DNA of 64,000 bases from Candidatus Nomurabacteria bacterium (GTDB taxonomy: Bacteria; Patescibacteriota; Minisyncoccia; Phycocordibacterales; UBA918), in NCBI GenBank assembly GCA_020632035.1, contig JACKGG010000003.1, forward strand, positions 36,534 to 100,533, given 5' to 3'. Made by a program: the position numbers and the translations under genes. This document shows positions 1 to 55,932 of the stretch, one piece after another. Position 1 is the stretch's first letter. The number at the start of each line of letters is the position of its first letter. The notes below the pieces were generated by a model, which saw only the letters and a list, made by a program, of their open reading frames with translations, did no database searches and had not been told where the DNA came from.

Positions 1-534
1 TACTCTAGCCAAACCCTCCGTCACCACCCCTACTCTTTGTTCAAGTTGGATCCGGTGTTCTTCAAACCTCATCTCATCGGGTAAGGCGGCGTTTTTGTTC
101 CCGGGAGTGAAAAGATTAGTAATACCTTTAGTTAGGTTAATTTTTGATGGAGTATAAGGCACAACCACAAAAAAGTTTTTACTCATAACATCTACATTGG
201 TGGTGAAAGTCCTAATGAACTCCATATACTCTCTAAGTTGTACCTGCATTAATTCGTTGTCTTGTTTATTCTGTAACCCAGACAATAATTCAAGATATGG
301 CTCAATGTTAAGTTTGCGCGATTGAACATATACCTGGAGTGAAAAATCTAATGTGTTTAAAAAACTTTGGAACTGTCCAAGCACGGCCCTTTGTTCGTCG
401 AGCGACTTTAGCGCAAAGTTTATAGAAGAAGCCAACAACAACATTAACATCTGGCCATTTTTTTCAATGACGACGTTTTCTTTTATGTCTCGAACTGAGA
501 CAAAGTCTTGGGTAGCAGCTTTAGAATTAGACAT
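1..534 (-). CDS. partial CDS (N-terminal part, runs off window edge): putative T4SS ATPase, VirB4/PrgJ-like
   Basis: Minus-strand frame from ATG at 534..532 (MSNSKAATQDFVSVRDIKENVV...) is open to position 1. It lies directly downstream of the PrgI-like gene, in VirB6-VirB3-VirB4 order. Function assigned by synteny only. Confidence 0.4.
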   Translation of the reverse strand, partial: MSNSKAATQDFVSVRDIKENVVIEKNGQMLMLLLASSINFALKSLDEQRAVLGQFQSFLNTLDFSLQVYVQSRKLNIEPYLELLSGLQNKQDNELMQVQLREYMEFIRTFTTNVDVMSKNFFVVVPYTPSKINLTKGITNLFTPGNKNAALPDEMRFEEHRIQLEQRVGVVTEGLARV

Positions 535-536
535 AA

Positions 537-968
537 TTACTCAGGTTTTTGTAAGGCTTGTAATTCTAATTTGCGGGCCAGAGAAGAAATGTCCTTTTTG
601 GGTTTTGATGTTGCGGCCAGCTGAGACATGTAAATTTGTGAAGAGTAATTATTGGCTGGTCCAGTCGGTCTTTGTTTATGTACAACATCTTGGTTTTGTC
701 GCCATAAATAAAGCCTTTGTTTCTTTATGTAATTAAGAATAGCTTCTAAGAAAAAAGAAAAGGGCCGGTTGTTAACTGGATAAAACGCCAAAGCTCCCGA
801 CAAGAGCGCTAGTGGTATTCCTAAAATAACAAAAACAAAAAACGGCATAGTAAAAAACATTACTACCGCCATACCAACTCCTCCACCAATATACAGAAAC
901 TGGCGCCAAGTAAGGGGACCAAAAATTTTGTCTTCAACTTCAATAAACTGAGGAACTTCAAAACGCAT
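537..968 (-). CDS. PrgI/VirB3-like small membrane protein of T4SS-like cluster
   Basis: 143 aa. N-terminus 'PQFIEVEDKIFGPLTWRQFLYIGGG' followed by two TM helices, typical of the PrgI family. Confidence 0.6.
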   Translation of the reverse strand: MRFEVPQFIEVEDKIFGPLTWRQFLYIGGGVGMAVVMFFTMPFFVFVILGIPLALLSGALAFYPVNNRPFSFFLEAILNYIKKQRLYLWRQNQDVVHKQRPTGPANNYSSQIYMSQLAATSKPKKDISSLARKLELQALQKPE

Positions 969-1038
969 ACTCCAACATTATACACGTTACACAAAAGAAA
1001 TAGAGGACATTTGCCCTCTATCCCAATATCCACAAGAT

Positions 1039-3627
1039 CTATTCCTTAAATGTATCACTAACCTCTTTTTCAAAGTTTTTAATGAGGTCATCTTGAGAAG
1101 ACTTGTAAGTTTTTTCCTCATCTTTTTCTTTACCAGAATTAGATTGGGCCCCCTTAGATTTAGTAGTTGATTTTTTTATATTATCGACACTCTCACCAAA
1201 GAAAATCTTATGTCCTTGTTCGTTTTGTAGGTATTCAATATTTGCCTTTGCGCGAGCGATAGCTTTTTGGCTATAATTCCCATCTTCGACTTTTTCCTCA
1301 GCAATAATTTTCCATTTTTCAAGTAATTCATTTCTACTTGACTTGGACATTTTAGTCATTGCTCTATCTTCCGCAGCAAAAGTTGTGATCCAATCGGTAT
1401 CAAGATATTGTGCAAGTTTGTAGTCTTCAGCCTTAATCGCATCAGGATGAAGTTGCGTAGCGATATTTTTCCCACTCTTAAATGAGCCCTTAGTAACATA
1501 TTTTTTGCTTACATCGTCGTATTCATTAACAATCTTGTATAGCATTCGAGCGGAATCATTGAGATTTATAACTCCTTCTTCATCAAGTTTTTCTGGAAGT
1601 TCTTTATCTTTAGGTATTTTCTTAACATTTTCATTAAGTGCTCGCTTGTGTGTATCAAGAAAACTTTCGTAGAAAGTGTCACTCATCATACCTATACGTT
1701 TAATCTCAGTCATTTGTTGGTTGACAAGTAGGCCCGCATTTTTAACAGCCCAGTCAACACCAAGAACGTCGATTTGCTTGGCAGTGAGTTTTTTCAGTTG
1801 GTCATTAAGTATGATTTGTATTTTATTACCCGCTGCATCAATCTTGTCTGTTACTCGCGTAAAGCTTGATTTGATACTCTCTTGCATAAGCGTCTCCATC
1901 TTGTCACGAACAACCTTATCGATATCTTCATCCTTTTGTAACGCTTCGTATTTACTCATTTCCATAAACGGAACCATAGCATACTTGATTTGGTCAGGCA
2001 TGTTCTTGATTTCAGATGTATTAGTGTCCTTCACCGCCTTCATTGCTAGGGTTACTTCCGTTGCAAGTTGGTCAGTTAAAGCAACTTTCTCTACATCTGT
2101 CATGTTTTCAAATTGTCCTTCTATAATGTTGCCTTCTTCATCCATATATTTGTTATTTGCGTAGGCTTCCTGACGCTTGAGGGCAACAGCTCCTGCAGCA
2201 ATCTGGTTTCTTCGTTCGGCCCGAAGTAAGGTGTGTTGTTTTTGGTAAAGATCACCCTCCTCATCACGCTCGAAGCCCATCTTGTTGCCTTCTAGGGCTG
2301 GTGTCAAACGACCAAGTACCTGGTCTTGAACTACATTAGTACGGGCAATTCTTCCAATCATGTTACTAAATGAGTCTGGTGGTGCATTAGGGTCAATTTT
2401 TTGTTGTGCTTTCAGGGTGGCGTATTTAATATTCTGACCAACCGAAGACACAGCTGATCGGGCACCTAAACGTAGAGGATACGATACCCCAAGAGCCGCC
2501 TGCTTCGCTCCCCCCACTGCCCACCGCCTACCTGTGGCAGTCGCCTTCTTACCAACAGACATGACCATCGAGGCCCCATTGGCACCCATTTTATTTGCAA
2601 TGATAATGGAGGCAATTAGGAAAATAGAACCAAGAATAAATGGGGTAAAAGATCCGACAAAAGTATGGTTCACCCCGGAACCACCGTTTAAAAAAGCGTT
2701 GCCAATTGCAGCTGGTCCAGCTGTACTTCCGAGTACATTGGTGTAGTTTTGTACTATGCTGGCCGACAGGTACAACATAAGGATATAAACTGGCGCAAAG
2801 AAAGCCCGACCAAGAAAGCCCGACCAGTAGTCATCAGTATATTTTTGTAATTTTGGGAAAACCCAACCGATAAACATAAGGGGAGAAAGAACCAAATAGA
2901 TACAAAGCACAGCCGCTCTGATAATAAGCAGGAAACCACCAGCCGCGAACACAAATGTAGCAATCACTAGCATAATCATGGTGCCAAAGATGTACCCCCA
3001 CAATGGACCTTTTTTCTCTGCAAGCACAGTAATCTGTGACTCTCCGGTATCAGTCCCTCCACCCAGAATCGAGGTGAAACCAATCGCGTTGGCAAAAGTG
3101 TCTGAAACCAAAACGTACCCGACCGGCTGTTTCATCAATCCCACCTCCGGTTTTTCGTGGACAAAACCAGCCAAAGCTACCTCGCTAGCAATGATGTTGG
3201 TAAAATCTACTACAAACTTAGTGAAGTATAGACTAAAGTTCACCAAGATTGCTGCCATGATGAGGTGCACCAACCAACGCTTAGTGTTGGAGTCATCACT
3301 ATTGAGGATCATTTTGAAACCAATGTACACTAAACCGAATATAAAAGTGATGTTGAAGATATCTCTCACGCTGACCCAAGCTAGGTCGACTGCTGCCCCT
3401 AAACCACCAGAAGTATAAAGATCACCAAAACCAATCACGAAATCATTAATCCCTACATTGAGGAGTTTTCCAGCTAGTCCAGCAAAGAAGCCAAACACTC
3501 CCGTTACGATGTACCATACTACTCCCTCTATTCCATCTATATCAGCAAAAGTTAAAGAGGGTATTAGCGCTAACACCGCTGCCAGGACCAATATAATTTT
3601 TGTTGAATTATGGGAGGAAGTTCTCAT
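1039..3627 (-). CDS. large polytopic membrane protein, VirB6/TrbL/PrgH-like, with long charged coiled-coil C-terminal domain
   Basis: 862 aa. About 8 hydrophobic segments in the first ~330 aa, then a K/E-rich coiled-coil tail. Immediately upstream of the PrgI-like gene. Confidence 0.5.
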   Translation of the reverse strand: MRTSSHNSTKIILVLAAVLALIPSLTFADIDGIEGVVWYIVTGVFGFFAGLAGKLLNVGINDFVIGFGDLYTSGGLGAAVDLAWVSVRDIFNITFIFGLVYIGFKMILNSDDSNTKRWLVHLIMAAILVNFSLYFTKFVVDFTNIIASEVALAGFVHEKPEVGLMKQPVGYVLVSDTFANAIGFTSILGGGTDTGESQITVLAEKKGPLWGYIFGTMIMLVIATFVFAAGGFLLIIRAAVLCIYLVLSPLMFIGWVFPKLQKYTDDYWSGFLGRAFFAPVYILMLYLSASIVQNYTNVLGSTAGPAAIGNAFLNGGSGVNHTFVGSFTPFILGSIFLIASIIIANKMGANGASMVMSVGKKATATGRRWAVGGAKQAALGVSYPLRLGARSAVSSVGQNIKYATLKAQQKIDPNAPPDSFSNMIGRIARTNVVQDQVLGRLTPALEGNKMGFERDEEGDLYQKQHTLLRAERRNQIAAGAVALKRQEAYANNKYMDEEGNIIEGQFENMTDVEKVALTDQLATEVTLAMKAVKDTNTSEIKNMPDQIKYAMVPFMEMSKYEALQKDEDIDKVVRDKMETLMQESIKSSFTRVTDKIDAAGNKIQIILNDQLKKLTAKQIDVLGVDWAVKNAGLLVNQQMTEIKRIGMMSDTFYESFLDTHKRALNENVKKIPKDKELPEKLDEEGVINLNDSARMLYKIVNEYDDVSKKYVTKGSFKSGKNIATQLHPDAIKAEDYKLAQYLDTDWITTFAAEDRAMTKMSKSSRNELLEKWKIIAEEKVEDGNYSQKAIARAKANIEYLQNEQGHKIFFGESVDNIKKSTTKSKGAQSNSGKEKDEEKTYKSSQDDLIKNFEKEVSDTFKE

Positions 3628-3644
3628 GATATTTCAATTCATAA

Positions 3645-4592
3645 TTATTGCAGTAGACCCTTACCTTCAGAGAATATCTTAGTAACTAGAGCTCCAAACA
3701 ACGCACCTAACACCTCATTGACAGTATCGGCAGCGATTAAGGAATCTTCTACACCATTTATAGTGAAGGTTAATTTTTCCTGGATTGTTTTACCTGGCGT
3801 AAAAATAGTGCAAATATCTTTTTCAACACCGTTTTCGGTTACTTCCTCACAATTTTTCATAGATAAGAAGTTACTACTACCTCTTAGTAGCTCCAGTTCT
3901 TCACCCCGGGCGTTTACCAGCCTGGTGTCTAGACCTTGTTTAGATTTTATTAGCTGACCCAGTGGGGTGTATAACTGTGGATTGGAAGTCACATCAAACC
4001 AATCATCCCAACCTCCCTGCGAGAAGCTGCCTTGAGTGCCGCTCAAGAAACCCTCTAGATTATCTATAACTCCAGTTAAAGTACAGGCTGGTTCTGAATC
4101 ATCTCGTGTATATTGATAGATTGAGGAAAGAGCAATAGATATATCTAGCTTGAACGGGTCACAAATAAATGAGCCTATTGAGCTCAGTTCCTTGATGTAG
4201 GTTCCAACCGCCACATCGCCGACCTCTAACATGTAACTACCAATGTCTTCCACAAAACCTGGTCGACCATCAAAACCATTATTAATCCAATCTAGCATAT
4301 CCTTTACAATAAGTTGCAGAGCGACTTTAGCGGCCATCCAAGCGAGGCCATTGAGTCCACCAGGTAATTCTCGTGCTTCCCTGGCTCCCTCTGCGGCTAC
4401 AATACTTTCGATTCCAGCTAAGGCTGCACCAGGAATTACTTCACTGAAACAGTTAATACACTCTGTGGCTAACTGTGCCTCAGCTGTTGAAATGTTGGTA
4501 TAGGGTACTGGCACATAAGTCACTACAAACCCAAAGACTACAAATACTGTTGCCACCAAACCCCTTCTTAAAAATGTGAAGAATGTATCCAT
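3645..4592 (-). CDS. hypothetical membrane-anchored/secreted protein (T4SS-like operon member)
   Basis: 315 aa with an N-terminal TM/signal segment. Same strand and tight spacing with neighbours. Confidence 0.65.
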   Translation of the reverse strand: MDTFFTFLRRGLVATVFVVFGFVVTYVPVPYTNISTAEAQLATECINCFSEVIPGAALAGIESIVAAEGAREARELPGGLNGLAWMAAKVALQLIVKDMLDWINNGFDGRPGFVEDIGSYMLEVGDVAVGTYIKELSSIGSFICDPFKLDISIALSSIYQYTRDDSEPACTLTGVIDNLEGFLSGTQGSFSQGGWDDWFDVTSNPQLYTPLGQLIKSKQGLDTRLVNARGEELELLRGSSNFLSMKNCEEVTENGVEKDICTIFTPGKTIQEKLTFTINGVEDSLIAADTVNEVLGALFGALVTKIFSEGKGLLQ

Positions 4593-4595
4593 AGG

Positions 4596-5492
4596 CTAGT
4601 TGTTAGGTTGGTTATCTGGGCTAAAAATATTGAATAATAAAGCTGGGTCGTCCGCCCCAAATAGGTCCGCATATTTTTCTAACGCGGCGTACATATTGCC
4701 TAAAGCAAGTGTCATACCCTCGATATTATTCGGGTAGCGCTTTAGATACACTAAAGACAGTAAAGGATCATCAATGATTTTAGACATAGCGTCGATGTCC
4801 TCATGTACTGCTTGATAGGTATTTAAAAGATCTAGGTGTTCTTTAACAAATATTTTTGGAACGGGGATCTCTAACGTATCTGCAAATATATTTTGATAAA
4901 CTAGGGCCTTTTTTTCTAGATCTACCGTTCGCTCCTGTTTGTCATTGCGCAAAATATCATCCAAAATAACCAATTCATTTTCAGTACTATCTTTACCATG
5001 GCGGTAGATAGTAGCAGCTACTGTATTGGCATAGTTGACAATATCTTGGTCGTCCGACTCTTCCATAATCACTAAATCTTCTGTACCCACCAACTTAACC
5101 AGGGCTCCCTGTTCTATTGACTCGACAACTCCGTTTACCACTTCGTCATCACTTGGAGTAAAAGGAGCATAGATCCTTGACTCGATCATCCCTTCCAAAA
5201 GTTTTACACCTACTTTACCAGTCAGTGTATCTGGTGGAACATAGGGTGCACCTGGTTCAAATTTGTTGACAATTTCTGCGTCGACGAAAGCGTCACGCCA
5301 GTCTTCGATACCATTTTTATCGTTGTCGGTAACTACGATCGAGACGCGCTCCAATGGCTCAGAAGCAAGGGCTGTAGCAGGCTGTTGCGGAAAATTAGAT
5401 TCACCAAAATTGCTGATGGTGTAAGCACCAGCCACCAACGCCAAACCAATAACGGTTGCGCCAATGATCTTGGGATTTAATTTACCTCCCAT
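4596..5492 (-). CDS. hypothetical secreted protein (first gene of T4SS-like operon)
   Basis: 298 aa. N-terminal signal/TM 'IIGATVIGLALVAGAYTISNFG'. Acidic extracytoplasmic domain. Confidence 0.65.
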   Translation of the reverse strand: MGGKLNPKIIGATVIGLALVAGAYTISNFGESNFPQQPATALASEPLERVSIVVTDNDKNGIEDWRDAFVDAEIVNKFEPGAPYVPPDTLTGKVGVKLLEGMIESRIYAPFTPSDDEVVNGVVESIEQGALVKLVGTEDLVIMEESDDQDIVNYANTVAATIYRHGKDSTENELVILDDILRNDKQERTVDLEKKALVYQNIFADTLEIPVPKIFVKEHLDLLNTYQAVHEDIDAMSKIIDDPLLSLVYLKRYPNNIEGMTLALGNMYAALEKYADLFGADDPALLFNIFSPDNQPNN

Positions 5493-9449: not shown

Positions 9450-9596
9450 CATTTCTAAGTACGGAAGTAGCGACAGAACGGCGGCGAGTCCTAACAACAG
9501 CCTATAAAACCCAACTCAAAAGACACTGATGATAATTCTGGTATATCCGGTCATCAGTCTACATACCCGAAGACACATACAAACACTAGTACTCGA

Positions 9597-10592
9597 GTGT
9601 TTGGAGAAATTTTGTTCCTAAGCCTCGTGATTGTGGTGCCTATTTCTGTTCATGCTGGCTTTTTCTCAAAGCTTTTTAATAATACTGAAGTAATAGCTTC
9701 TACCTTGGCTCCAGAAGCCACCCAGAGCGGAATAGATGTTCCCCTTCTTACTGCCCAGCAAAACCCCAACCCAATGGCCGCTAGAGGAGGAGCCGAGATT
9801 ATCGTTGAAGATAATGTGCTAGTTTCTACTGGACCGGTTGGAGACGATGTAATAGCAGAACAAAAAAGTAGTCTGGGAGAAATTCGCGTATACACCGTGC
9901 GTGAAGGAGACTCCCTTTCACAAGTTGCGGATATGTTTGGGGTCACTACCAATACTATTATGTGGGCAAATGATTTGACCAAAGCCACCGCTATCCAGCC
10001 AGGAGATTCTTTGGTCATTCTCCCAATTGCGGGAGTACGCCACGTGGTAAAGAAAGGAGACACCATGAGCACAATTGCCAAGAAATACGATGGCGATCAA
10101 GAAGAAATCCTTTCTTATAATCAGTTAAGTTCAGCCGATGATCTTAAAGTTGGTGACACTATAATCATTCCTGGGGGAGCGGTTCAGACACCTGCCCGCT
10201 CAGTTGCCTATGCTCAACCAGTTAGTTCATCTGGATCTAGTGCTTCATCTGCAGGTTTTGTGCACCCAGCTCCAGGTTCAGTCAAGACCCAGGGTATTCA
10301 TGGTTATAACGGCGTTGACCTAGCTGGAGCCTATGGCTCATCTATTCGAGCCACCGCCGCAGGAGAAGTAATTGTATCTAAAAGTTCAGGATGGAATGGC
10401 GGTTACGGTCAATATATAGTGATAAGACACCCAAATGGAACCCAAACCCTATACGCCCACCTTTCAGGTAATTCAGTTGGTGTTGGAGCTTATGTTTCAG
10501 CCGGCCAAGTGATAGGTACTATGGGAAGTACTGGTAAGTCTACTGGGACTCACCTGCACTTCGAGGTCCGCGGTGCACGCAACCCATTCTAG
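9597..10592 (+). CDS. LysM-repeat M23-family metallopeptidase (cell-wall hydrolase)
   Basis: Two LysM modules ('YTVREGDSLSQVA', 'HVVKKGDTMSTIA'). M23 'HLHFEV'. N-terminal signal peptide. Confidence 0.85.
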   Translation: MFGEILFLSLVIVVPISVHAGFFSKLFNNTEVIASTLAPEATQSGIDVPLLTAQQNPNPMAARGGAEIIVEDNVLVSTGPVGDDVIAEQKSSLGEIRVYTVREGDSLSQVADMFGVTTNTIMWANDLTKATAIQPGDSLVILPIAGVRHVVKKGDTMSTIAKKYDGDQEEILSYNQLSSADDLKVGDTIIIPGGAVQTPARSVAYAQPVSSSGSSASSAGFVHPAPGSVKTQGIHGYNGVDLAGAYGSSIRATAAGEVIVSKSSGWNGGYGQYIVIRHPNGTQTLYAHLSGNSVGVGAYVSAGQVIGTMGSTGKSTGTHLHFEVRGARNPF

Positions 10593-10906
10593 GCGAATTA
10601 CTTCGTTGCACTACGAAAAAAGACCCTCTCTGGACACGTGCCCCACTCGGGTCTTTTTTCTTGTTCGCCTCCTTCTTCATACTAGAATAGGTTTCGTTGG
10701 TAAAAAACATTTTATACACTACACTTTGTTGCCTCGTGTGGAATTCTAAAATGGATTCCTGGAAACACGAATCATACTAAAGTGATCTTTTTATTCAATT
10801 TATTAGAATAATTTAATGTACCAGTGTACGCCTCAAAATATTTTCTTCATTTACCTCGTACTTCATCCCAGAATGGATTCCTCACATTTGATATTTTTTA
10901 ATATAC

Positions 10907-12421
10907 TTACAAACTCACGCGATATTGTAAGGCTTCAAGGAGGTGGCTGGTCTCGATCTCTTCACTTCCGTCCAAATCTGCTATGGTGCGTGCCACTTTA
11001 ACTAAACGGTGGTAACTACGGGGTGAAAGATTTAACTTAGCACTCGAAATTTTGAGTAAATCTTTTACCTCTTCTTTTAGACTAATGAGTTCTTCTATAT
11101 CTCTAGCCGACATACCAGAGTTAGTGTTTGTATCTGTTTTCAAAAAGCGATTAGACTGAAGGGCGCGGGCTGAAAGTATTTGTTCGCGAGCATTTTTTGT
11201 TTCTTCGACTTTACTCGGTAGCGAAGTTAGAGTGTCATACGGTACATGTGGAACTTCAAGCCATAAATCGATACGGTCGAGGATTGGCCCCGACACCTTG
11301 TTCTTATAAGTTTCATGCATTGCTCGAGCTAGGTCGGTGGTACCGTCTTCGCTTCCTCGATAGGGATTTAGAGCTGCGACAAGAATAAAATCTGCTGGAA
11401 ACTCGGCTGTACTTTGTACTCGAGAAATTGAAACTGTTCGTTCTTCAAGTGGCTGGCGTAGTGCGTCGAGGGAACGCCGGTCAAACTCCGGAAATTCGTC
11501 CATAAAAAGTACGCCGTGATGAGCCAGGGTAACTTCACCTGGTTTGGGATGAGCACCACCGCCAACTAATGAGGTATGAGAAGCGGTGTGATGAGGGCTC
11601 CTGAACGGAGGTTTGGTACTAATAGAAAAATCACTGTTTGCTACTGAATGAATGGCTGTGACCTCTAAAGATTCTTTTCGAGTCAAAGGTGGCAAAAGTG
11701 CTCTAAGAGCCCTAGCTAACATGGTTTTGCCGGTCCCTGGAGGTCCGACCAGCATTACGTTGTGTCTGCCAGCGGCAGCAATAATGAGTCCGCGCTTAGC
11801 ACTTTCTTGTCCCTTTATATCCTCTAAATTGACTGTGCTTTCGTGCCAGTGACCATCTACCTTAGTTAGAGGTTGGGCATTTAGTTTTAAGTCCAAGTCT
11901 TCTCCTGGCTTTATGTGCCCTATTACCTCATTAAGATTGTTGGCTGGATATATTGAAATTCCTTCAATCAGAGCTGACTCCTCTGCATTTTCTTTGGGCA
12001 CAATAATTTCTTGGTAACCAGCCTCCTTGGCGGCTCGAGTGGCATTGAGAGAACCTCTGACAGGCCTAAGTGTACCATCAAGGCTAAGTTCACCGATGAA
12101 AATCCTTTTTACTTCATCTATCTCAATCTCTCCCGAAGCTACCAAGTACGCAATAGCGATTGGTAGATCAAACAACGGCCCTTCCTTTTTTAGATCAGCC
12201 GGAGAAAGTGAAATAACCACCTTTTGGTTTTTAGCTTTAGGTGAAGTGTAGCCAGAATGCTTGATGGCGCTCCCGACCCGATCTTTAGATTCGTCAACCG
12301 CTTTACTGGCTAAACCAACTACAGAGAAAGAGTGTAACCCTCGTGAAATATCTGCTTCAATATTTATTACCGTACCTCGAAGAATGTCTGGTTGAACGGT
12401 GTGGACTCTTGCAATCGCCAT
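10907..12421 (-). CDS. comM: Mg-chelatase-like AAA+ protein YifB/ComM
   Basis: 504 aa. 'MLVGPPGTGKTMLA'. ChlI-like N-terminal Lon-type domain. Confidence 0.9.
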   Translation of the reverse strand: MAIARVHTVQPDILRGTVINIEADISRGLHSFSVVGLASKAVDESKDRVGSAIKHSGYTSPKAKNQKVVISLSPADLKKEGPLFDLPIAIAYLVASGEIEIDEVKRIFIGELSLDGTLRPVRGSLNATRAAKEAGYQEIIVPKENAEESALIEGISIYPANNLNEVIGHIKPGEDLDLKLNAQPLTKVDGHWHESTVNLEDIKGQESAKRGLIIAAAGRHNVMLVGPPGTGKTMLARALRALLPPLTRKESLEVTAIHSVANSDFSISTKPPFRSPHHTASHTSLVGGGAHPKPGEVTLAHHGVLFMDEFPEFDRRSLDALRQPLEERTVSISRVQSTAEFPADFILVAALNPYRGSEDGTTDLARAMHETYKNKVSGPILDRIDLWLEVPHVPYDTLTSLPSKVEETKNAREQILSARALQSNRFLKTDTNTNSGMSARDIEELISLKEEVKDLLKISSAKLNLSPRSYHRLVKVARTIADLDGSEEIETSHLLEALQYRVSL

Positions 12422-12426
12422 AGAAC

Positions 12427-12801
12427 CTACATCACTAATTCCCTCTCACGATCTATATTTGCTAAATTTGTTCGAGCGGCCGGGTTAGTATTTAGTCGCT
12501 CAATCTCGATTGGTTCGCCACTTATTTCACAAATACCGAAAGTTCCATTGGCAATTTTCTCTAAGGCTCGTTTAATATTTCGATAGCGGATTTCAAGTTG
12601 TGCCAGTGAGGCGCGTCTCTCGTTCCATTCCTCAACTGCATCTGCTTCAACGTTATCATCGGCGGTTTTTAGATCTTCTGCCACTGGTACTGCCACCCAG
12701 TCATCTGAGTTAGGACTTCTTTTTGCTATGGTTTTAAGTTCAGTGGTTAGTGACGCTAGTTCTGTTTCAAGTATTGTTTTAAATTTAGCGTTTTTTGTCA
12801 T
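12427..12801 (-). CDS. DksA/TraR-like small protein (no complete C4 zinc finger)
   Basis: 124 aa. Coiled-coil N-terminus plus C-terminal 'GTFGICEISGEPIEIERL' resembling the DksA/TraR tail. Only one Cys. Confidence 0.45.
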   Translation of the reverse strand: MTKNAKFKTILETELASLTTELKTIAKRSPNSDDWVAVPVAEDLKTADDNVEADAVEEWNERRASLAQLEIRYRNIKRALEKIANGTFGICEISGEPIEIERLNTNPAARTNLANIDRERELVM

Positions 12802-12812
12802 AGGTAATATTG

Positions 12813-14651
12813 TTATTTAGAAAATTTTGACACAATCATTTTTTCGAGATCACCTTTGCTGGCTGCTACTAAAGCAGTATTGTCATCTATTATGCAGTAA
12901 ACCAGAACAGTTTCTCCGTTTTGGATTAGAGCTCGAACATCCAAACCTTGCACATCACCATCAACGAAGCTCGCGTTAGAGCTTGGCTCATAACCATAAA
13001 AAGATGCAAAATCAGTACCCATAGTAGTTTCCCAGCTTAAGAATCCACCCCTAACAGTAATGTCGTCTATAAATTTAAGTAATAGTACCTCTTCACTATT
13101 AGAGGAAATCAAGAAACGTGCATTGGTCAATGATTGTTTTAGTGTTGGCGCGGCTTGAAATTCTAACAATTCAAATACGTATGATGGACCGACTTCTTCC
13201 CCAGCCGGTGATACAAAAGCGATTTCAGTAATGCTCACATCAGACGGCCTTGTTTCAGAATTGACCTGCTGAGGAAGAGAATTGATATTTTCTGCACTAA
13301 GGGCAATAGTGGTAAGGTTGGAGTCCTGAAGCAATACCTTGACTGGAGCAACAGTTGGAGTAGAAGAGTCCAGACCATTACTCATATATAAGATAAACAG
13401 TCTAGAAATGACAATTATAATAACGATACCAATAATGGTTAGCAGGGTTATGACAGTAAGAGTATTGGTATCAACCCTTTCAATGAACGACAGCTGATTT
13501 GTTCGCTCTCTTACTTTTGTATAACTTTGAATCGGTTCGAGCTCTGGCTCAGGTTCCACAGTTGGTGTAGGAACATAAACTTCATTTTCGGGTTGCTCTG
13601 GCTCAATCGGTGGGATTACATCCTCTACCTCAGGAACAACCACACTAGTTTCAACCTCTGGTATTTTAGTCTCATGTATTTCTGGTATTGGCTCGACAAC
13701 CGGAGCTTCTGGAACTTTGACTGGTTCTGGCTGTACCCATGGAGCAGGCGCATCCCAACGGTGGTCATCTTCTGACGGTGGCGGAGGAATAGAGGGTCTT
13801 GGCCTGACTATGTTTTGCTTGAGAGGAAGCGTTGGGGTCGGTGGTGCTAAAGGAGCAGCTGGACGTTTTTTATATTCAAATTTTACATTCTGAACAGCCG
13901 CCGGAGGAGTCTCGTCAGGAGCCTCTAGTAGATTATATCCAGGATCAGTGTATGGCGACCACAATGTTTCAGCCTCATCTTCTTTTTGAGCCAGTGCAGC
14001 TTGCTGTTGTCGATGACGTATTTGTGCCTTTAAGGTTTCGCTATCGGCAGTAAAGATGGAACCAGTTTTAGTGGTAGCTTTTTGAATTACTCCTTTGCGA
14101 CGACTAGCTTCCGGTACGGTGTATTTTGGAGTTTTCTTTTTTCTTGGTTTAGTGACTTCTTTGTACCACTCTCGCAATGATTTAGAAACAGATGAAAATA
14201 GGTCCATCTTATTGTTCTTGGTGTCGGTAATTATTGTAGCGTCTAGACCGATGTTTCTCTTTATCGGCTCTGGCTCTGTTTTAGGGTCGGTTTTTTTCTT
14301 CTTTGGTTTAGATTTCTTGGCTGGCTGAGCCTCTAGGTTAGAAACCTGCTTGTGTACCTCATGATAAGCCGGAAAGTGTTTTGGTTCAGGTTTGGTAGAG
14401 CTTGTTTTTGTTGGCTCCTCAGCAACAAAGTGCTCCATCTTCACAGGCTTTGTCTCCGGCTTTGGGGCCGGTGTTTTTGTGGGCGCATCTTCTTTAATAA
14501 CTTGGTTTATTTCTGTTTCTAAAGATACTGTGGGTTTGGGGACAGTGTGAGACACTGGAGGTACCGTATTATCACGGTTTTTTCGATGTTCATCCAAATC
14601 CCCAGCAAACGTACGGATCCTAGGAGAGACCTTTTTGGATATATCAGACAT
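12813..14651 (-). CDS. proline/lysine-rich single-pass membrane protein, function unknown
   Basis: 612 aa. PEPEPE/PxP low-complexity N-terminal region. One TM ('LTVITLLTIIGIVIIIVISRLFILY'). Globular C-terminal domain. Confidence 0.7.
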   Translation of the reverse strand: MSDISKKVSPRIRTFAGDLDEHRKNRDNTVPPVSHTVPKPTVSLETEINQVIKEDAPTKTPAPKPETKPVKMEHFVAEEPTKTSSTKPEPKHFPAYHEVHKQVSNLEAQPAKKSKPKKKKTDPKTEPEPIKRNIGLDATIITDTKNNKMDLFSSVSKSLREWYKEVTKPRKKKTPKYTVPEASRRKGVIQKATTKTGSIFTADSETLKAQIRHRQQQAALAQKEDEAETLWSPYTDPGYNLLEAPDETPPAAVQNVKFEYKKRPAAPLAPPTPTLPLKQNIVRPRPSIPPPPSEDDHRWDAPAPWVQPEPVKVPEAPVVEPIPEIHETKIPEVETSVVVPEVEDVIPPIEPEQPENEVYVPTPTVEPEPELEPIQSYTKVRERTNQLSFIERVDTNTLTVITLLTIIGIVIIIVISRLFILYMSNGLDSSTPTVAPVKVLLQDSNLTTIALSAENINSLPQQVNSETRPSDVSITEIAFVSPAGEEVGPSYVFELLEFQAAPTLKQSLTNARFLISSNSEEVLLLKFIDDITVRGGFLSWETTMGTDFASFYGYEPSSNASFVDGDVQGLDVRALIQNGETVLVYCIIDDNTALVAASKGDLEKMIVSKFSK

Positions 14652-14717
14652 TACATCTAGTATCGCATGATTTGAGTCATTTGTGAGACCTTTTTTTCTC
14701 TGACTGTGGGCTTCTGG

Positions 14718-16838
14718 TTACTTATTTGGAGTCTCAAAACCGCGTTTCTTTGCAAAATCAGGGTCAATTTGCTTGATAGACAAGCCAATTTTTCCGTCTT
14801 CCACCTTAGATACCACAACAGTCACCACCTCCCCCTCTTTTAATAGGCCCTCCAAAGATTCAATCCTAAAGGGAGCTATCTCAGAAATATGAATTAGCCC
14901 TTCGTTGTATGCATCAAGTTTTGCAAAAGCGCCAAAAGTCGCAATTTTAACGATAGTTACTTCTAGTTTTTCACCTACTACGTAGACTTTTGTCAAAGCT
15001 CGGATTTTGTCAGCAGCAAGCTCAGCTGTACCATTTTTGCCAGAAATAAAGATGGTTCCATCTTCTTCTATGGTTATTTCTTCAACTCCCGTTGAGTCTT
15101 TGATTCCATTAATGGTTTTACCACCACCACCGATCACTAGCCCGATTTGATCAGGCAAGATTTTGAGTGTGACTATTTGTGGAGCACGCGGAGAAATTTC
15201 TTTTCTTGGTTCAGCAATTTCAGCGGTCATGGTTTTTAAAATATGCAGTCTGGCTAAACGTGCTTTTTCTAGCGCCTCTACTAAAATGTGTAGTGGTACC
15301 CCATCTACTTTTACATCCATCTGGATAGCAGTTACTCCTTCAGTAGTTCCAGCTACTTTAAAGTCCATGTCTCCAAATTCGTCTTCTGGCCCTTGGATAT
15401 CAGTCAAGACAGCATACTGGTTGCCGGAGATCATTACCCCGGAAGCGATTCCAGCTACTGGTCTAGTGATAGGAACCCCACCATCCATTAGCGCCAAAAT
15501 AGATCCACAAACAGAACCCATGGAGCTTGAACCATTACTAGATAAAGTTTCCGAAACTAAGCGAATGGTGTACGGGAAATCTTCCTGCGACGGGATAACT
15601 GGCAGGATAGCTTTTTCAGCTAAGGCACCATGACCAATCATGCGTCTATTAAAACCTCCAACTCGGCCAGTTTCTCCGACCGAAAATGGCGGGAAGTTGT
15701 AGTGGTGAATAAAGCGCTTTTTGTAGTCTTGAGATTCGATGGTGTCTATCATCTGAGCTGCGTCTGGTCCGCCTAGAGTCAGAGCAGAGAAAATATGTGT
15801 GCCTCCTCGATAGAAAATTCCTGATCCATGTAGTACCGGAGACACTCCCCCAGCCTTGGCGTAGAGCTCTCGAACCTCATCCATCGCTCGTCCGTCTGCT
15901 CGCTTACTTTCTTCTAATGCTCCACGATGAAGCTCTAAATCAACCATGTTTTCAAAGAAATCACTAGACACTTTCTCATCTAAATCTAATGCCTTTATCT
16001 CTTGCAAAAATTCGTCCTTAACTTCGTAGATATGAGACTTGCCAGCTTTGCTACTGAAGATTGCCTTAGACAGTTTTTCCTTAAAATTATTTTCAAACAA
16101 TGAAGAAATTTCTAAAGATATTTCCTTGGTTGGTTCTGGTTGCTTTTCTTTACCAATTGAAACAACAATTTCTTTTTGCCAATTTTCTAGTTTTTTGTGT
16201 AGGGCAATCGAGGTTTCAAAAACATCTGCTATGTCTGATTCGGATACTTCGTGCGAGGCAGTCTCGATCATGTTGATGGTGCCTTCTTTTCCACAAGATA
16301 GCACCTCAAAGTCCAATAGGTTTTCCGCTCGTTCTAAGTAGGTCGGATTAATTACCACTTCTTGTGTTTTTTTATTTCGGCCGATCCGAACAGCTCCTAC
16401 CGGGCCACGCCAAGGAATGTCAGAAACAGAAAGTGCCAAGGAGGCTCCGATCACCCCAAGTACATCGGGGTCATCTTCACCCATGGCAAGTACTGACACT
16501 ACAACCTGGATGTCTTTCCGCATATGATGATTGAAAAGTGGACGAATGGTTCGGTCAACAATTCGCGCCGATAAAATTGCTTCGTCGCTTGGCCGACCTT
16601 CTCGTCGCATAAACCGACTACCAAGTATTTGCCCAGCAGCATAAAACTTTTCTTCAAATTCTACCGACAAAGGAAAATAGTTCATGTTACTTTCTCGGTC
16701 ACTCATTACGGCTGTTACCAAGATGGCGGTTTCACCGTATTTAAGTAGTACTGAACCATTGGCCTGTTCGGTTAGGTTAGTAAATTCTGCTACTAATGTT
16801 TTACCAGCCAGTACCAAAGAAAAAGATTGTGATTTCAT
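14718..16838 (-). CDS. pnp: polyribonucleotide nucleotidyltransferase (PNPase)
   Basis: 706 aa. Two RNase PH domains, KH and S1 ('GEKLEVTIVKIATFGAFAKL'). Confidence 0.95.
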   Translation of the reverse strand: MKSQSFSLVLAGKTLVAEFTNLTEQANGSVLLKYGETAILVTAVMSDRESNMNYFPLSVEFEEKFYAAGQILGSRFMRREGRPSDEAILSARIVDRTIRPLFNHHMRKDIQVVVSVLAMGEDDPDVLGVIGASLALSVSDIPWRGPVGAVRIGRNKKTQEVVINPTYLERAENLLDFEVLSCGKEGTINMIETASHEVSESDIADVFETSIALHKKLENWQKEIVVSIGKEKQPEPTKEISLEISSLFENNFKEKLSKAIFSSKAGKSHIYEVKDEFLQEIKALDLDEKVSSDFFENMVDLELHRGALEESKRADGRAMDEVRELYAKAGGVSPVLHGSGIFYRGGTHIFSALTLGGPDAAQMIDTIESQDYKKRFIHHYNFPPFSVGETGRVGGFNRRMIGHGALAEKAILPVIPSQEDFPYTIRLVSETLSSNGSSSMGSVCGSILALMDGGVPITRPVAGIASGVMISGNQYAVLTDIQGPEDEFGDMDFKVAGTTEGVTAIQMDVKVDGVPLHILVEALEKARLARLHILKTMTAEIAEPRKEISPRAPQIVTLKILPDQIGLVIGGGGKTINGIKDSTGVEEITIEEDGTIFISGKNGTAELAADKIRALTKVYVVGEKLEVTIVKIATFGAFAKLDAYNEGLIHISEIAPFRIESLEGLLKEGEVVTVVVSKVEDGKIGLSIKQIDPDFAKKRGFETPNK

Positions 16839-16960
16839 AAATTTTATTTATGAGCTGGTCACGATGAGACATTTGAATTTTCTCAAATATCCTCTCGTGT
16901 ACAGCTCATTTGTAATCAACTGAGAATATCAAAATATCAGGAAAAGCTCCACTCTGGGAA

Positions 16961-18666: not shown

Positions 18667-19578
18667 ATGAACCTAGTGGAACTGAAACGGCAATTTCTTG
18701 AGTACTTAGAAATCGAGCGGGGAAGAAGTGTGAAGACAGTTGAAAACTACGATCGTTACCTAGAACGCTTCTTCGAATTCGCTAAAGTTAAAGCGCCAAA
18801 AGATTTGACTGAGGAACAAATTAGAGAATTTCGTTTGTATCTCAATCGACAACCCGGTACAAAAGTTGGCGGTCGGATGGAGCCCATGAAACGTCGGACA
18901 CAGAATTATTACCTGATTGCCTTGAGGGTGTTTCTTAAGTTTCTCCGTAAGCGAGGGATTGAATCTCTAAATCCTGAAAGAATAGAATTGGCCAAAGTTC
19001 CTGGGCGTTCACTCGACCTCATCTCCCCCACCGAGCTAAAACGTCTTATGTCTGCGCCAAACACAAAAACTCTTGAAGGCAAAAGAGACAAGGCAATTCT
19101 GGAACTTTTCTTTTCAACCGGTTTGCGTATTTCTGAACTATGCGGACTTTCGATTGACGATGTAGATTTAACTCGTGATGAATTTTCAGTTCGAGGAAAA
19201 GGTGACAAAGTGCGAGTAGTATTTATTTCGGATGAAGCGCGCTCTTCCCTTCAGGATTATTTGAAACATCGTAAAGACATGGATGATGCACTTTTTGTTC
19301 GCTACGGACGAAAGGTAAATGACGGAGGAGATCTACGAATTTCACCAAGAGCCGTTCAAAGAATTCTTAAAAAATATGCGACGCAAGCTGGTATCACTCG
19401 TAAGGTTACTCCGCACGTTATTCGGCACAGCTTCGCAACTGACTTACTTAGTAATGGTGCTGACTTGAGAAGTGTGCAAGCGCTACTCGGTCACGCTAAC
19501 ATTGGAACGACTCAAGTTTATACTCACGTCACCGGCAAGCACTTAAGAGAAGTACATAAAAAATTTCACGGTAAGTAA
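18667..19578 (+). CDS. tyrosine site-specific recombinase XerC/XerD family
   Basis: 303 aa. 'RHSFATDLLSNGADLRSVQALLGHANIGTTQVYTHV' (R-H-R-Y catalytic C-terminus). Confidence 0.85.
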   Translation: MNLVELKRQFLEYLEIERGRSVKTVENYDRYLERFFEFAKVKAPKDLTEEQIREFRLYLNRQPGTKVGGRMEPMKRRTQNYYLIALRVFLKFLRKRGIESLNPERIELAKVPGRSLDLISPTELKRLMSAPNTKTLEGKRDKAILELFFSTGLRISELCGLSIDDVDLTRDEFSVRGKGDKVRVVFISDEARSSLQDYLKHRKDMDDALFVRYGRKVNDGGDLRISPRAVQRILKKYATQAGITRKVTPHVIRHSFATDLLSNGADLRSVQALLGHANIGTTQVYTHVTGKHLREVHKKFHGK

Positions 19579-19606
19579 AAAGACCACAAGCTTTACTCAC
19601 AGTCTC

Positions 19607-19640
19607 AAAAAACCCCGAGGTTCGACCTCGGGGTTTTTTT
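19607..19640. terminator. rho-independent terminator
   Basis: aaaaccccgaggttcgacctcggggttttttt. Confidence 0.7.
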
Positions 19641-19659
19641 GGTTTTCTTTAATTCAGCT

Positions 19660-20673
19660 CTACTTGTTCCATAATAACTTTATAAGTTTCCACAGACCTC
19701 GGGCAAGTAGCAATAACACAATTCCGTAAATTGCTAGACGAAGTGTCCAAAGAATAAAGATTCCGAAGAAAGCAGACAGACCGATTAGCGTGTCGGTGTA
19801 TGCATCACGCAATTCATCCCAAGCCCGTTCCCACTTTTGAGAATCTTTATTTAGGAAGATCGGATTCGAACGACTTACATTGACTGAAAACTCCACCACC
19901 CCCAATCTTTCATCAAGGTCGGCTGATTGTTGATAGAGATTGTTTAGTTGACTAGTGAGACTAATCTTTCTTTGCGTCAGTTGGTCGATTAGTGCCAAAC
20001 TCTCGTTTACTCTTTTTGAAAGGGTGGCTACGTCATCGCTGGTTAGGTAGAAGTCTGTCAGGTTATTGAGTTGAGTTTCGGCAGTTGTTAAAGAACGCTC
20101 AACACTGGCCAGCTGTTGTTGCAATATACTGGTCTGACTTTGTAGTTGTTGTTTGTGCTTGGTTACTGAGGAAGTGTTACGAGTGTATTCTACTCCCTGA
20201 TAGCCTGCCAAAGTACCCAGTACATTTTCTGATTTATTTTCAACTACATAAAAAATAGAGTTACAGTTGTTGGTCGATTCGTTTAGACTTTTGAAATGAA
20301 TTTCTGTATCAGCTTTTAGATTTTTTATTGTGTTACAAAACTCATTAAATTGTTTAGTTTTACCGCTAACTAAATATGAAGTAGTTTCGTATGTTTCGAG
20401 TTCAGAAGTATATCCGTTTGGAGCAGGAACTGGTGGGTAGTACATCGCATCTCGATCACTAAGACCCATTTCTTCAGTCACGGCCATTTTACCAGCGTAT
20501 GACGGAGCGGTTGGCGAGACCGCGTTGTAGTCGTATGAGTCAAAAGAACCATCGTTTAGTCCAGTACTTGAAGAAAAGAGATTTACTATTCCCCAGAAAA
20601 TTACTAGTCCGATTAAAAGAAGAATTCCAATTCCTGCAAAACGAACATATTTATTTTGTAAAAGTGATGGCAT
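19660..20673 (-). CDS. membrane protein with central coiled coil (DUF4349-like architecture)
   Basis: 337 aa. N-terminal TM, Q/L-rich coiled coil, C-terminal TM pair. Confidence 0.6.
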   Translation of the reverse strand: MPSLLQNKYVRFAGIGILLLIGLVIFWGIVNLFSSSTGLNDGSFDSYDYNAVSPTAPSYAGKMAVTEEMGLSDRDAMYYPPVPAPNGYTSELETYETTSYLVSGKTKQFNEFCNTIKNLKADTEIHFKSLNESTNNCNSIFYVVENKSENVLGTLAGYQGVEYTRNTSSVTKHKQQLQSQTSILQQQLASVERSLTTAETQLNNLTDFYLTSDDVATLSKRVNESLALIDQLTQRKISLTSQLNNLYQQSADLDERLGVVEFSVNVSRSNPIFLNKDSQKWERAWDELRDAYTDTLIGLSAFFGIFILWTLRLAIYGIVLLLLARGLWKLIKLLWNK

Positions 20674-20712
20674 AAAATATTTTTAGCTTATTACAAATAT
20701 TGTAACACAAAT

Positions 20713-20745
20713 AAAACCGGCGCGCCCGAAGGGCGCGCCTGTTTT
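20713..20745. terminator. GC-rich hairpin (aaaaccGGCGCGCCcgaaGGGCGCGCCtgtttt)
   Basis: Seen in sequence. Related in sequence to the hairpin at 23824-23858 on the other side of the RM gene. Confidence 0.6.
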
Positions 20746-20768
20746 AAAAGTATAAATAGATTTACACC

Positions 20769-23700: not shown

Positions 23701-23786
23701 AAAGCTGTGCGGTAGGACATCTCGGAGCTGTTTTCATCGGAAAGATATTTTGAGATTTCGTGCAGATATTCGGTGGCTGGATTCAT
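20769..23786 (-). CDS. Type IIG/IIL restriction-modification fusion enzyme (MmeI-like: N-terminal PD-(D/E)xK nuclease + N6-adenine MTase + TRD)
   Basis: 1005 aa. N-terminal 'NKPDFIIL...LYIEVKK' (D...ExK). 'VVVGNPPYSVSS' (NPPY motif IV). SAM-binding 'DPAVGTGTF'. Confidence 0.75.
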   Translation of the reverse strand: MNPATEYLHEISKYLSDENSSEMSYRTAFQNYLATIFPAEQNYHIQHDQRTIDGNKPDFIILKNQVPLLYIEVKKVGENLDKIEASEQAERYFGYTNLIISDYVEFRFFRNGQKYNEPISLASLDSKGKTIIPCLGQNETLERTVRDFVVEQKEPIKRGSHLAKIMGGKGRRIRDNLKQFISVESSKNSELLHVYDTLKQMLVHDLTDETFADMYAQTLVYGLFVARYHDDSLQNFSRQEARDLVPASNPFLRHFFDHIAGPTFDKRLRYIVDELCEVFLHADTKKLVEEYMGEADPIIHFYEDFLKEYDPDLRKKMGAYYTPLPVVNFIVRAVDKILEKDFGLGQGLADTTKLPDGTHKVQILDPAVGTGTFISRVIYVIYERILKQKQKGRWTTYVHRELLPRLHGFELMMAPYTIAHLKLSLAFKETGFHYFLERLGIYLTNALEKSEDNQASIAFGLAQSIANESKEAGVIKNDTQVMVVVGNPPYSVSSSNKGEWIQEQIKVYKKDLNEKKINLDDDYIKFIRFAEHFVEKNKSGVVAMITNNSFIDGITHRQMRKHLLETFDDIYIYDLHGNSKKKETAPDGSKDENVFNIQQGVSINIFVRKNEDKKGLGTIHHSELFGLRKDKFEQLNSVPFEKVKWTKLENVEPYHFFVPKDFGAQGEYEKGFSVNNVFEKATSGIESGKDDFIVAFEAKNITDLKQFIENNEVKEIASVYGLKLDKSEQVKRDIDNAMQDSVEILYRPFDKRHTLYSPNSQGLWWRPRYSVMKEMLTNNIGFIAKRGMSEEKSSPCYVSDSIIDRRSWSRPGMLGAEQIYPLYIFNEDGTKTSNFDEKIVGEIEGVVGTTTPEDILDYIYAVLHSPSYREKYKEFLKIDFPRVPYPETKDAFWKLVKYGKELREIHLLKSPKVSQYITSFPEEGDDTVDKVSFADGRVHINKEQYFGDVPEVAWNFYIGGYQPAQKWLKDRKGRQLTNEDIEHYQKIIVALTETDRIMKNIDSAL

Positions 23787-54281: not shown

Positions 54282-54483
54282 GACAATACTTCTTTATTAA
54301 ATAATCCTCCGTAACTGTGTATCAGCACTGTACTAGAGAAATGGTGGTTTGTAAACGAGTGATAGAAATCACAAAACCCCTACTTTGATAAGACACGAAT
54401 CAAGTTCTCTGCTCAACAGTTTAGGAGACTGTTTCCGCAAGGCCTTATCAAAGTTGGGATTTTGCTTATTAAAGTTATTTTAT

Positions 54484-54630
54484 TTATAAATCTTATCTAC
54501 AATGCCATATTTCTTTGACTCTTCAGCATCCATAAAGAAGTCTCGGTCTACGTCTTGGTTGATTTTTTCAATTTTTTGTCCAGCTGCAGCAGCCAGCATT
54601 TTGTTTAGTCTCTCGCGAGTCTTGAATTTG
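54484..54630 (-). pseudogene. clpP 3'-terminal fragment (encodes ...[49 protein letters not shown]), direct repeat of the intact clpP 3' end at 57519-57665
   Basis: 44 of 48 residues identical to the ClpP C-terminus. 50-bp core identical at DNA level, flanks about 80%. No upstream coding continuation. Confidence 0.65.
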
Positions 54631-54779
54631 CTTTTTTGCGAACATATGGTATTATTTATGTATGGTTCTTTTCATCGTTTCGCCACAGCTTACTTTGTGG
54701 AAACAGCTTATTTAAAGCAAGCTGTGGCGAAATCCAATTCTGGGCTAGTTGTACAGCTAAAATGAAAGGGAGACTTATC

Positions 54780-55466: not shown

Positions 55467-55490
55467 TCTTTAGGACGTTTGTCCTAAAGA
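55467..55490 (+). promoter_or_regulatory. hairpin immediately 3' of VR (10-bp stem, 4-nt loop GTTT)
   Basis: tctttaggac-gttt-gtcctaaaga, starting 1 nt after the stop codon. Analogous in position to the VR-flanking hairpin known to stimulate DGR homing. Confidence 0.5.
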
Positions 55491-55923: not shown

Positions 55924-55932
55924 CATTTATTG

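Follow-up and report, generated by a model that had tools for sequence, protein, structure and literature searches.

A survey of 3035 genomes of Patescibacteria (the candidate phyla radiation, CPR), ultra-small bacteria most of which have a chromosomal type IV secretion gene cluster beside the replication origin, found VirB4, the ATPase of type IV secretion systems (T4SSs), in 2417 of the genomes, as a clade nested within the MPF-FATA type (PMC12102498, 2025). In that survey TrsD, a remote homologue of the VirB4 N-terminus, was the T4SS component most commonly encoded beside patescibacterial virB4, and PrgI/VirB3, VirB6 and VirB2-like pilins were also encoded nearby; VirB8 and VirB1 were rarely detectable, relaxases were almost absent, genes for type IV coupling proteins (T4CPs) lay mostly remote from virB4, and the locus of the Paceibacteria was found close to dnaA, dnaN, rnpA, ksgA and rpmH (PMC12102498). 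Transposon sequencing (Tn-seq) of Southlakia epibionticum revealed that its T4SS genes, which include no recognisable coupling protein or relaxase, are essential for epibiotic growth (PMC10633639, 2023), and a 2025 review treats the patescibacterial systems as a new T4SS subgroup (PMC12857230). Here we describe the T4SS-related gene cluster at positions 1-5492 of a 64,000-nt stretch of a Candidatus Nomurabacteria contig (JACKGG010000003.1; hereafter the window), in which all genes of the cluster lie on the minus strand. We put the probability at roughly 85% that this cluster is the upstream half of the vertically inherited chromosomal T4SS locus of Paceibacteria-class Patescibacteria, likely serving host interaction or epibiotic growth.

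The identification draws on gene content, homology, synteny and conservation, all of which were read directly from the genomes compared. The original prediction, made from the letters of the window alone, was of a T4SS-like operon of the Gram-positive (Prg) type with five co-directional minus-strand genes, the coordinates and sizes of which proved correct (Table 1). The short intergenic gaps between the five open reading frames (ORFs), of 3, 17, 70 and 2 nt, give the group an operon-like appearance. For each of the five, most of 80 species-level genomes (tblastn matrix) have an orthologue, and the order is kept, indicating that they are real genes rather than chance ORFs; this species-representative set does not include the window's own genome, and its closest match was 86% identical. 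An exact-protein look-up placed the same genes on contigs from five independent assemblies, and the contigs bearing the locus are labelled Candidatus Kaiserbacteria or Nomurabacteria. One of these contigs, L001 (GCA_020428885.1, labelled Candidatus Kaiserbacteria), shows 3 mismatches to the window over 7206 nt and thus comes from the same organism. The assignment to the Gram-positive (Prg/MPF-FATA) type was upheld by a PrgI match, by a TrbL family that recurs among homologues of the third protein, and by an adjacent VirB4 whose orthologue passes a curated VirB4 model, as detailed below.

The gene at the window edge turned out differently from what had been expected, namely a VirB4 ATPase gene inside which the window ends. 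On L001 the cut gene is a complete 213-aa ORF that ends 35 codons past the window, contains no P-loop and stops 2 nt before virB4, the start of which lies ~110 nt outside the window edge; the ATPase is therefore the next ORF, and the forecast that the full sequence of the downstream gene would reveal a VirB4-family ATPase fails literally, with a genuine VirB4 following immediately. The part of the claim that held is the resemblance to a VirB4 N-terminus. The 213-aa protein aligned to positions 99-250 of NCBIfam VirB4_plasma, an 894-position model for the VirB4 of mycoplasma integrative and conjugative elements (ICEs) (E = 6.7e-10), and to NCBIfam TrsD/TraD (E = 6e-4); all 29 sampled members of its family matched the VirB4_plasma and TrsD models, and 25 of the 29 also matched CD1110-type VirB4. 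No Pfam family matched the protein in the copy searched, precomputed tables list PF26593 (TraC-like), and sequence searches of the PDB returned no match for the protein or its family. By these profile matches, the product of the fifth gene is a soluble TrsD-like protein that corresponds by homology to the N-terminal part of long VirB4 ATPases.

The adjoining VirB4 aligned to positions 274-893 of the same VirB4_plasma model, abutting the segment covered by the TrsD-like protein. The first 433 aa of the ATPase ORF were seen on L001, with a GAGKS Walker A motif and matches to P-loop_TraG and DUF87 above cut-off; full-length orthologues are ~598 aa long. One such orthologue, P0002 (90% identical), scored 351 bits against NF045971, "VirB4-like conjugal transfer ATPase, CD1110 family" (cut-off 325), matched the VirB4 crystal chain PDB 4ag5 at 2e-42 and carries the Walker B motif VIDEAW. 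The best curated model for the ATPase is that of a Firmicutes MPF-FATA-type VirB4, and among its best 120 matches, which were 81-90% identical, every source-named one was labelled Patescibacteria. The offset from trsD to virB4 is 644 nt in L001 and 645 nt in the relative L006, and these different relative frames in different genomes indicate a true two-gene split rather than a frameshift or sequencing error. A programmed frameshift joining trsD and virB4 was also considered and was ruled out by the differing frames of L001 and L006.

Identification of the fourth gene as PrgI/VirB3-like was confirmed. Its product scored 44.5 bits against Pfam PF12666 PrgI (cut-off 27) and has a hydrophobic hairpin at residues 24-66, and among the 82 loci compared, 75 have prgI as the immediate upstream neighbour of the trsD-like gene. 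The product of the third gene had been described as a VirB6/TrbL-like polytopic protein, and hydropathy analysis agreed with this, revealing a signal-like N-terminus, ~7 hydrophobic segments up to residue ~349 and then a hydrophilic tail of ~510 aa; parsing into eight transmembrane (TM) segments may be an alternative. The protein thus has the at least five TM segments by which a VirB6 is recognised, and it is encoded adjacent to prgI-trsD-virB4. TrbL was matched by 12 of 38 VirB6-like homologues at E <= 0.01 (best 2.5e-6) and was the sole family to recur among them, with the window protein itself below the cut-off; orthologues carry a precomputed TrbL_3 match, and a profile search with the VirB6-like family against the PDB gave chance matches only. 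Through remote homology, topology and position, and not as a threshold-passing family member, the 862-aa protein is VirB6-like.

The tail of this protein had been characterised as a very long K/E-rich coiled coil, unusual for VirB6. Its great length was borne out, and its K/E-richness is only moderate (K 11.8%, E 8.5%, D 7.5%). The coiled coil found no support: a crude heptad score of 0.148 compared with 0.131 +/- 0.021 for shuffled sequences, with no high-scoring window, the protein matched no coiled-coil family in Pfam at E <= 1, and no internal repeats were detected in the tail. On the negative outcome of this crude heptad test, the coiled-coil tail was rejected. Nor does the tail set the protein apart. 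A search of 1.84 billion representatives returned 11,713 clusters related to the 862-aa protein, and 149 of the best 150 representatives were 477-915 aa long, the remaining one being 429 aa, so that a long tail (~270-560 aa in nearly all VirB6-like homologues) is the rule in the family; "extended VirB6" proteins with large hydrophilic domains are moreover a recognised class, the function of which is called unknown (PMC12857230). Most alignments covered residues ~10-380 of the query, some extended to ~660, and one, at 45% identity, spanned the tail. Of the 82 loci compared, 80 gave no tblastn match to the tail, even where VirB4 was 90% identical. Being present nearly always and unmatched in those 80 loci, the tail is universal yet hypervariable and fast-evolving. 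A further candidate explanation, that the 862-aa protein is a VirB6 fused with a small gene that lies downstream of virB6 in relatives, was dropped when no similarity was detected.

In 38 homologues the 38 residues following the last TM segment carry on average 6.3 lysines plus arginines and 1.2 aspartates plus glutamates. This positive-inside charge bias, together with the signal-like N-terminus and seven TM segments, favours a cytoplasmic location, and the tail is probably cytoplasmic. One could suppose that the tail is a specificity module which, with the detached TrsD and the two leader proteins encoded upstream, sets the Paceibacteria machine apart as a T4SS subtype with a mechanism of its own, and not a reduced conjugation system. 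Under that supposition, a cytoplasmic tail could be a built-in substrate-recruiting platform replacing the absent coupling protein, or, if the tail is exposed, it could be a host-range determinant under arms-race selection. We consider this proposal speculative and very unlikely.

The two leader proteins, which had been predicted to be secreted or membrane proteins, each have one N-terminal hydrophobic anchor. In the 298-aa protein the anchor spans residues 8-27, and a structure model predicts that the remainder forms an extracytoplasmic all-helical bundle of a generic kind. The protein contains an invariant loop made up of D56, G61, E63-D64-W65 and D67 (D..G.EDW.D, residues 53-67, VTDNDKNGIEDWRD), which may resemble thrombospondin-type-3 or EF-hand-like calcium-binding loops. 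The 315-aa protein consists of a single N-terminal hydrophobic anchor and an extracytoplasmic domain with conserved C144, C170, C248 and C261 and the motif DWINxGFxGxPxFV; the four conserved cysteines suggest the extracytoplasmic location. Its structure model is mostly helical, of low confidence and unreliable, and many orthologues are extended by 150-270 aa at the C-terminus. Neither protein had a significant or relevant family in Pfam or NCBIfam, and homologues of both came only from Patescibacteria metagenomes.

Comparison with relatives revealed that the five genes belong to a chromosomal locus of ~12 genes, seven more of which lie past the window edge. The gene order, read from annotated relatives, among them the closed 952-kb genome CP060228, and by tblastn in the 80 genomes, is constant: uvrD and ksgA are followed by the 298-aa gene, the 315-aa gene, the virB6-like gene, a small gene of 110-168 aa that is found in close relatives and is absent from the window genome, prgI, the trsD-like gene, virB4, genes for four proteins, membrane-bound or secreted, of about 304, 324, 396 and 240-477 aa, and then yidC, rnpA and rpmH on the opposite strand, followed by dnaA and dnaN. 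The same order flanked by uvrD/ksgA and yidC/dnaA was found in some 45-55 genomes at species level; inside the window the locus is bordered by ksgA and uvrD, and the yidC-rnpA-rpmH-dnaA side is known from relatives. The last gene of the cluster, as read in L006 (an 86-90% identical relative), encodes a 477-aa protein with a T4SS_pilin domain at residues 51-114 (29.6 bits, cut-off 26.6) that also matches the mycoplasma Mbov_0395 pilin-like family. Approximate identity to the genes of the window organism across syntenic relatives is 78-91% for VirB4 (in most of them), 59-86% for the TrsD-like protein, 42-73% for PrgI, 31-66% for the VirB6 TM domain, 27-56% for the 298-aa protein and 29-48% for the 315-aa protein, conservation dropping outwards from the ATPase. 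The conservation of VirB4 is comparable to that of DnaA and higher than that of KsgA.

Because no relaxase or coupling protein was found in the regions scanned and the chromosomal position is fixed, a role in host interaction or epibiotic growth rather than in plasmid or ICE conjugation appears likely, by analogy with the genetic evidence from the Saccharibacterium Southlakia. Relaxase and T4CP families had no match among the 40 ORFs scanned across the window, and no relaxase, T4CP or integrase was called in the annotated loci of the three relatives L006, L009 and L010, making the non-conjugative role that had been raised for the cluster probable. The rival explanation, that the cluster is carried by an ICE or another mobile element and serves in DNA conjugation, as in pCF10, pGO1 and the conjugative transposons of C. 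difficile, can point to the closest named families, all of which are conjugation proteins (PrgI, TrsD/TraD, CD1110-family VirB4 and mycoplasma ICE VirB4), and to a tyrosine recombinase gene and a Type ISP restriction-modification (R-M) gene 13-18 kb away in a low-GC patch. Such mobility is at odds with the fixed slot between ksgA and yidC-rnpA-rpmH-dnaA, and the invariable housekeeping neighbours speak strongly against derivation of the present copy from an ICE or plasmid. The lack of relaxase, T4CP and integrase genes in or beside the locus and a VirB4 as conserved as DnaA also count against mobility. In addition, the phylogeny of patescibacterial VirB4 tracks class taxonomy, 99.3% of nearest neighbours being from the same class, and relaxases occur in only 103 of the 3035 genomes surveyed (PMC12102498). 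We regard conjugation as extremely unlikely.

For the assembly, substrate and physiological role of the machine we propose a working model through homology to MPF-FATA systems and established T4SS biology. In it, the TrsD-like protein would complete VirB4 or act alongside it, and the ATPase would attach to PrgI/VirB3 and to a channel subunit, the VirB6-like protein, within the single cytoplasmic membrane; the ATP-driven translocon would energise assembly of the pilin-domain protein and would carry macromolecules across the monoderm envelope at contact with the host cell.

The same components could also work inward, as a T4SS-derived uptake machine that brings in host macromolecules such as DNA or RNA, after the manner of H. 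pylori ComB or the Ced system of archaea, and thereby feeds an organism lacking nucleotide synthesis. The missing relaxase and T4CP in the regions scanned would fit such a machine, and the window encodes many enzymes of nucleic-acid turnover (PNPase, RNase Y, an NYN domain, NUDIX proteins and an Exo_endo_phos nuclease). In the ABY1 class, the locus is co-located with comF, recG and radA (PMC12102498), and a 2026 preprint describes tubular structures, possibly T4SS pili, at the Minisyncoccota-host interface together with feeding on host RNA. VirB4 also matches the DNA-import ATPases CedB and CedD, but weakly, at 36 bits against a cut-off of 700 and 13.5 bits against a cut-off of 600, respectively. 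In Southlakia, competence relies on comEC together with type IV pili; cells survive deletion of comEC, whereas the T4SS is essential (PMC12857230), indicating that what makes the T4SS essential there is something other than ComEC-coupled uptake of DNA. The direction of transport is not readable from sequence, and we judge import unlikely.

Alternatively, the locus might mainly encode an adhesion or pilus-biogenesis apparatus, in which VirB4 powers a VirB2-like pilus or fibre that attaches to the host and nothing is translocated. This would agree with the pilin-domain protein that ends the locus in L006 (T4SS_pilin, Mbov_0395 pilin-like family), with the several co-conserved membrane-anchored extracytoplasmic proteins, and with the established function of VirB4 in driving pilus biogenesis (restated in PMC12102498). 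In relatives, however, the pilin domain is fused into a 477-aa protein and is not a small VirB2, the VirB6 channel subunit has been kept and conserved, and Patescibacteria already adhere by type IV pili, so that we consider a purely adhesive apparatus decidedly unlikely. Effector export, import of host macromolecules and the building of an attachment fibre are not separable by sequence.

Several points weigh against a host-interaction T4SS of the Paceibacteria-class kind. The role is borrowed from a different class, the Saccharimonadia, whose locus composition differs, Paceibacteria-class systems being known from genes alone. The window stops short of the ATPase and of the locus's downstream half, and past residue 433 the ATPase is reconstructed from relatives at most 90% identical. 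The 862-aa protein scored 19.4 bits (E = 1e-3) against Pfam TrbL (PF04610) and did not reach the gathering cut-off of 25.9; its L006 orthologue, at 22.5 bits, was also below it. A VirB8-like (NTF2-fold) subunit was not found, the structure models being those of the 298-aa protein (a helix bundle) and the 315-aa protein (low confidence) only, and no VirB1-like cell-wall hydrolase of the PrgK/TrsG type is encoded inside the operon. Finally, a T4CP or relaxase may be encoded elsewhere in this genome; T4CP homologues lie far from virB4 in many Patescibacteria (PMC12102498).

Three observations concern the locus and its immediate surroundings. Just beyond uvrD and ~4 kb upstream of the operon, a plus-strand gene encodes a protein with LysM domains and a Peptidase_M23 domain, and a protein of this kind is found at the same place in L006; it could be a candidate cell-wall hydrolase, a VirB1 analogue for the T4SS. 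In two GC-richer relatives, the Kaiserbacteria RIFCSP genomes L077 and L078 (~9500-16900), the 298-aa, 315-aa and virB6-like genes lie downstream of prgI-trsD, and tblastn found no VirB4 adjoining trsD; these two may have a rearranged or degraded locus. In the window itself, the 70-nt gap between the virB6-like gene and prgI holds a terminator-like hairpin with a 12-bp stem followed by a T run (RNAfold of the intergenic piece, -20.7 kcal/mol), which may be an internal terminator or attenuator dividing the locus into two transcription units. Comparable hairpins occur upstream of prgI in 15 of 73 relatives, compared with 6-15% in intragenic controls, and with so weak an enrichment a terminator upstream of prgI was not retained as a conserved feature.

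Elsewhere, the window contains a classic diversity-generating retroelement (DGR), unrelated to the T4SS locus, with a variable repeat (VR) and a template repeat (TR) that are 85% identical and differ at 18 positions, all 18 of them TR adenines. The DGR cassette is bracketed by an 83-nt direct repeat, the two copies being 89% identical; the right copy coincides with the 3' end of clpP, so that the cassette seems to have been inserted beside clpP, duplicating the clpP end. A second region comprises the tyrosine recombinase gene, a gene for a 337-aa coiled-coil protein with a weak crescentin-rod match, and the gene for the Type ISP R-M enzyme; this patch is low in GC (0.37 at 20-22 kb) and may be a small defence island. 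An ORF between a gene for a DksA/TraR-type zinc finger and the PNPase gene matched no Pfam family at E <= 1e-3. The cumulative GC skew of the window has its minimum near 34-36 kb, and dnaA is expected, by synteny, ~10-12 kb left of the window start, indicating that skew and dnaA are not coincident or that the skew is too weak to read.

Table 1. Positions of the T4SS-related genes and of other features in the 64,000-nt window.
Feature	Position	Strand	Description
298-aa gene	5492..4596	-	first gene of the cluster, bitopic protein
315-aa gene	4592..3645	-	second gene, N-terminally anchored extracytoplasmic protein
virB6-like gene, 862 aa	3627..1039	-	VirB6/TrbL-like polytopic membrane protein
Terminator-like hairpin	997..1024	-	in the virB6-like/prgI gap
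prgI/virB3-like gene, 143 aa	968..537	-	Pfam PrgI
trsD-like gene	534..1	-	first 178 of 213 codons in the window, open at the edge
LysM/M23 gene	9597-10592	+	two LysM domains and Peptidase_M23
612-aa ORF	12813-14651	-	between DksA/TraR-type zinc-finger and PNPase genes
Recombinase/Type ISP region	18667-23786		candidate defence island
Tyrosine recombinase	18667-19578
Type ISP R-M enzyme	20769-23786		1005 aa
83-nt direct repeat, left copy	54479-54561
DGR	54636-57349		whole cassette
DGR target ORF	54636-55466		276 aa, no Pfam family, ends in the variable repeat
DGR VR	55346-55464		119 nt
DGR TR	55805-55923		119 nt, 459 nt downstream of VR
DGR reverse transcriptase	56246-57349		RVT_1
83-nt direct repeat, right copy	57518-57600		3' end of clpP
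clpP	57519-58124	-

Compared with other extended VirB6 proteins, namely the Rickettsiales Rvh VirB6-like proteins and TraG of the F plasmid, the 862-aa protein likewise combines an N-terminal polytopic domain with a large hydrophilic C-terminal domain. The C-terminal domain of F TraG is periplasmic. The tail described here has no sequence similarity to the Rvh and F TraG tails, is hypervariable and is predicted to be cytoplasmic. The NCBIfam model that aligns best with the TrsD-like protein is that of mycoplasma ICE VirB4 (Mbov_0397), which for VirB4 ranks second, behind the CD1110 family, and the last gene of the cluster matches Mbov_0395 of the mycoplasma ICEs; in these elements the TrsD-like segment and the ATPase form one protein of 894 model positions, whereas here they are encoded by two ORFs, and the scores lie far below the equivalog cut-offs, indicating that the proteins are not orthologues.

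The locus also resembles the MPF-FATA systems of pCF10 and pGO1. Members of the PrgI family are shared, virB4 is immediately preceded by the TrsD-like gene, an order also seen in trsD-trsE, the VirB4 orthologue P0002 clears the cut-off of the CD1110-family model, and the architecture is that of a monoderm system without VirB7, VirB9 and VirB10. In contrast to the conjugative MPF-FATA systems, no relaxase, T4CP (PcfC/TrsK), PrgK/TrsG-type hydrolase, PrgL/VirB8-like protein or PrgB adhesin was found here, a pilin-domain gene is present in L006, and the genes are fixed at one chromosomal site and not carried on a plasmid or ICE.

The chromosomal T4SSs of Patescibacteria (PMC12102498), including that of Southlakia (SEML1_0006-0019, PMC10633639), are likewise among the closest known systems. 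Shared with them are VirB4, a TrsD homologue encoded on its own, PrgI/VirB3 and a VirB6-like protein, together with, as far as L006 shows, a VirB2-like pilin domain; the origin-proximal chromosomal site by ksgA, rnpA, rpmH and dnaA and the lack of relaxase and T4CP in the locus are common features too, and the VirB4 described here is >80% identical to thousands of Patescibacteria proteins. From the Saccharimonadia locus the present one differs in having no array of small-pilin genes and no peptidase or lysozyme gene directly after virB4, and in being headed by two unannotated extracytoplasmic proteins; from the loci of its close relatives it differs in lacking the small gene between virB6 and prgI. 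The system type, its MPF-FATA ancestry, the TrsD partner, the lack of relaxases and the origin-proximal site have already been published (PMC12102498; PMC10633639). Patescibacterial T4SSs are nearly universal in a group that makes up maybe a quarter of bacterial diversity, and the single species tested cannot grow epibiotically without them. To their description the present locus adds that, in this lineage, the gene beside prgI encodes the N-terminal piece of VirB4 as a separate protein, aligned to a stretch of the model adjoining that of the ATPase; that the 298-aa leader is predicted to be a membrane-anchored helix bundle and not a VirB8-like fold; and that the VirB6 tail is universal, hypervariable and probably cytoplasmic, giving no coiled-coil signal in a crude heptad test. 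Should an organism of the Paceibacteria class be brought into culture, these additions could help to select targets. In sum, the system was already described between 2023 and 2025, and the locus introduces no new principle: it shows no difference in kind from the known Patescibacteria T4SSs and is an ordinary member of that group.

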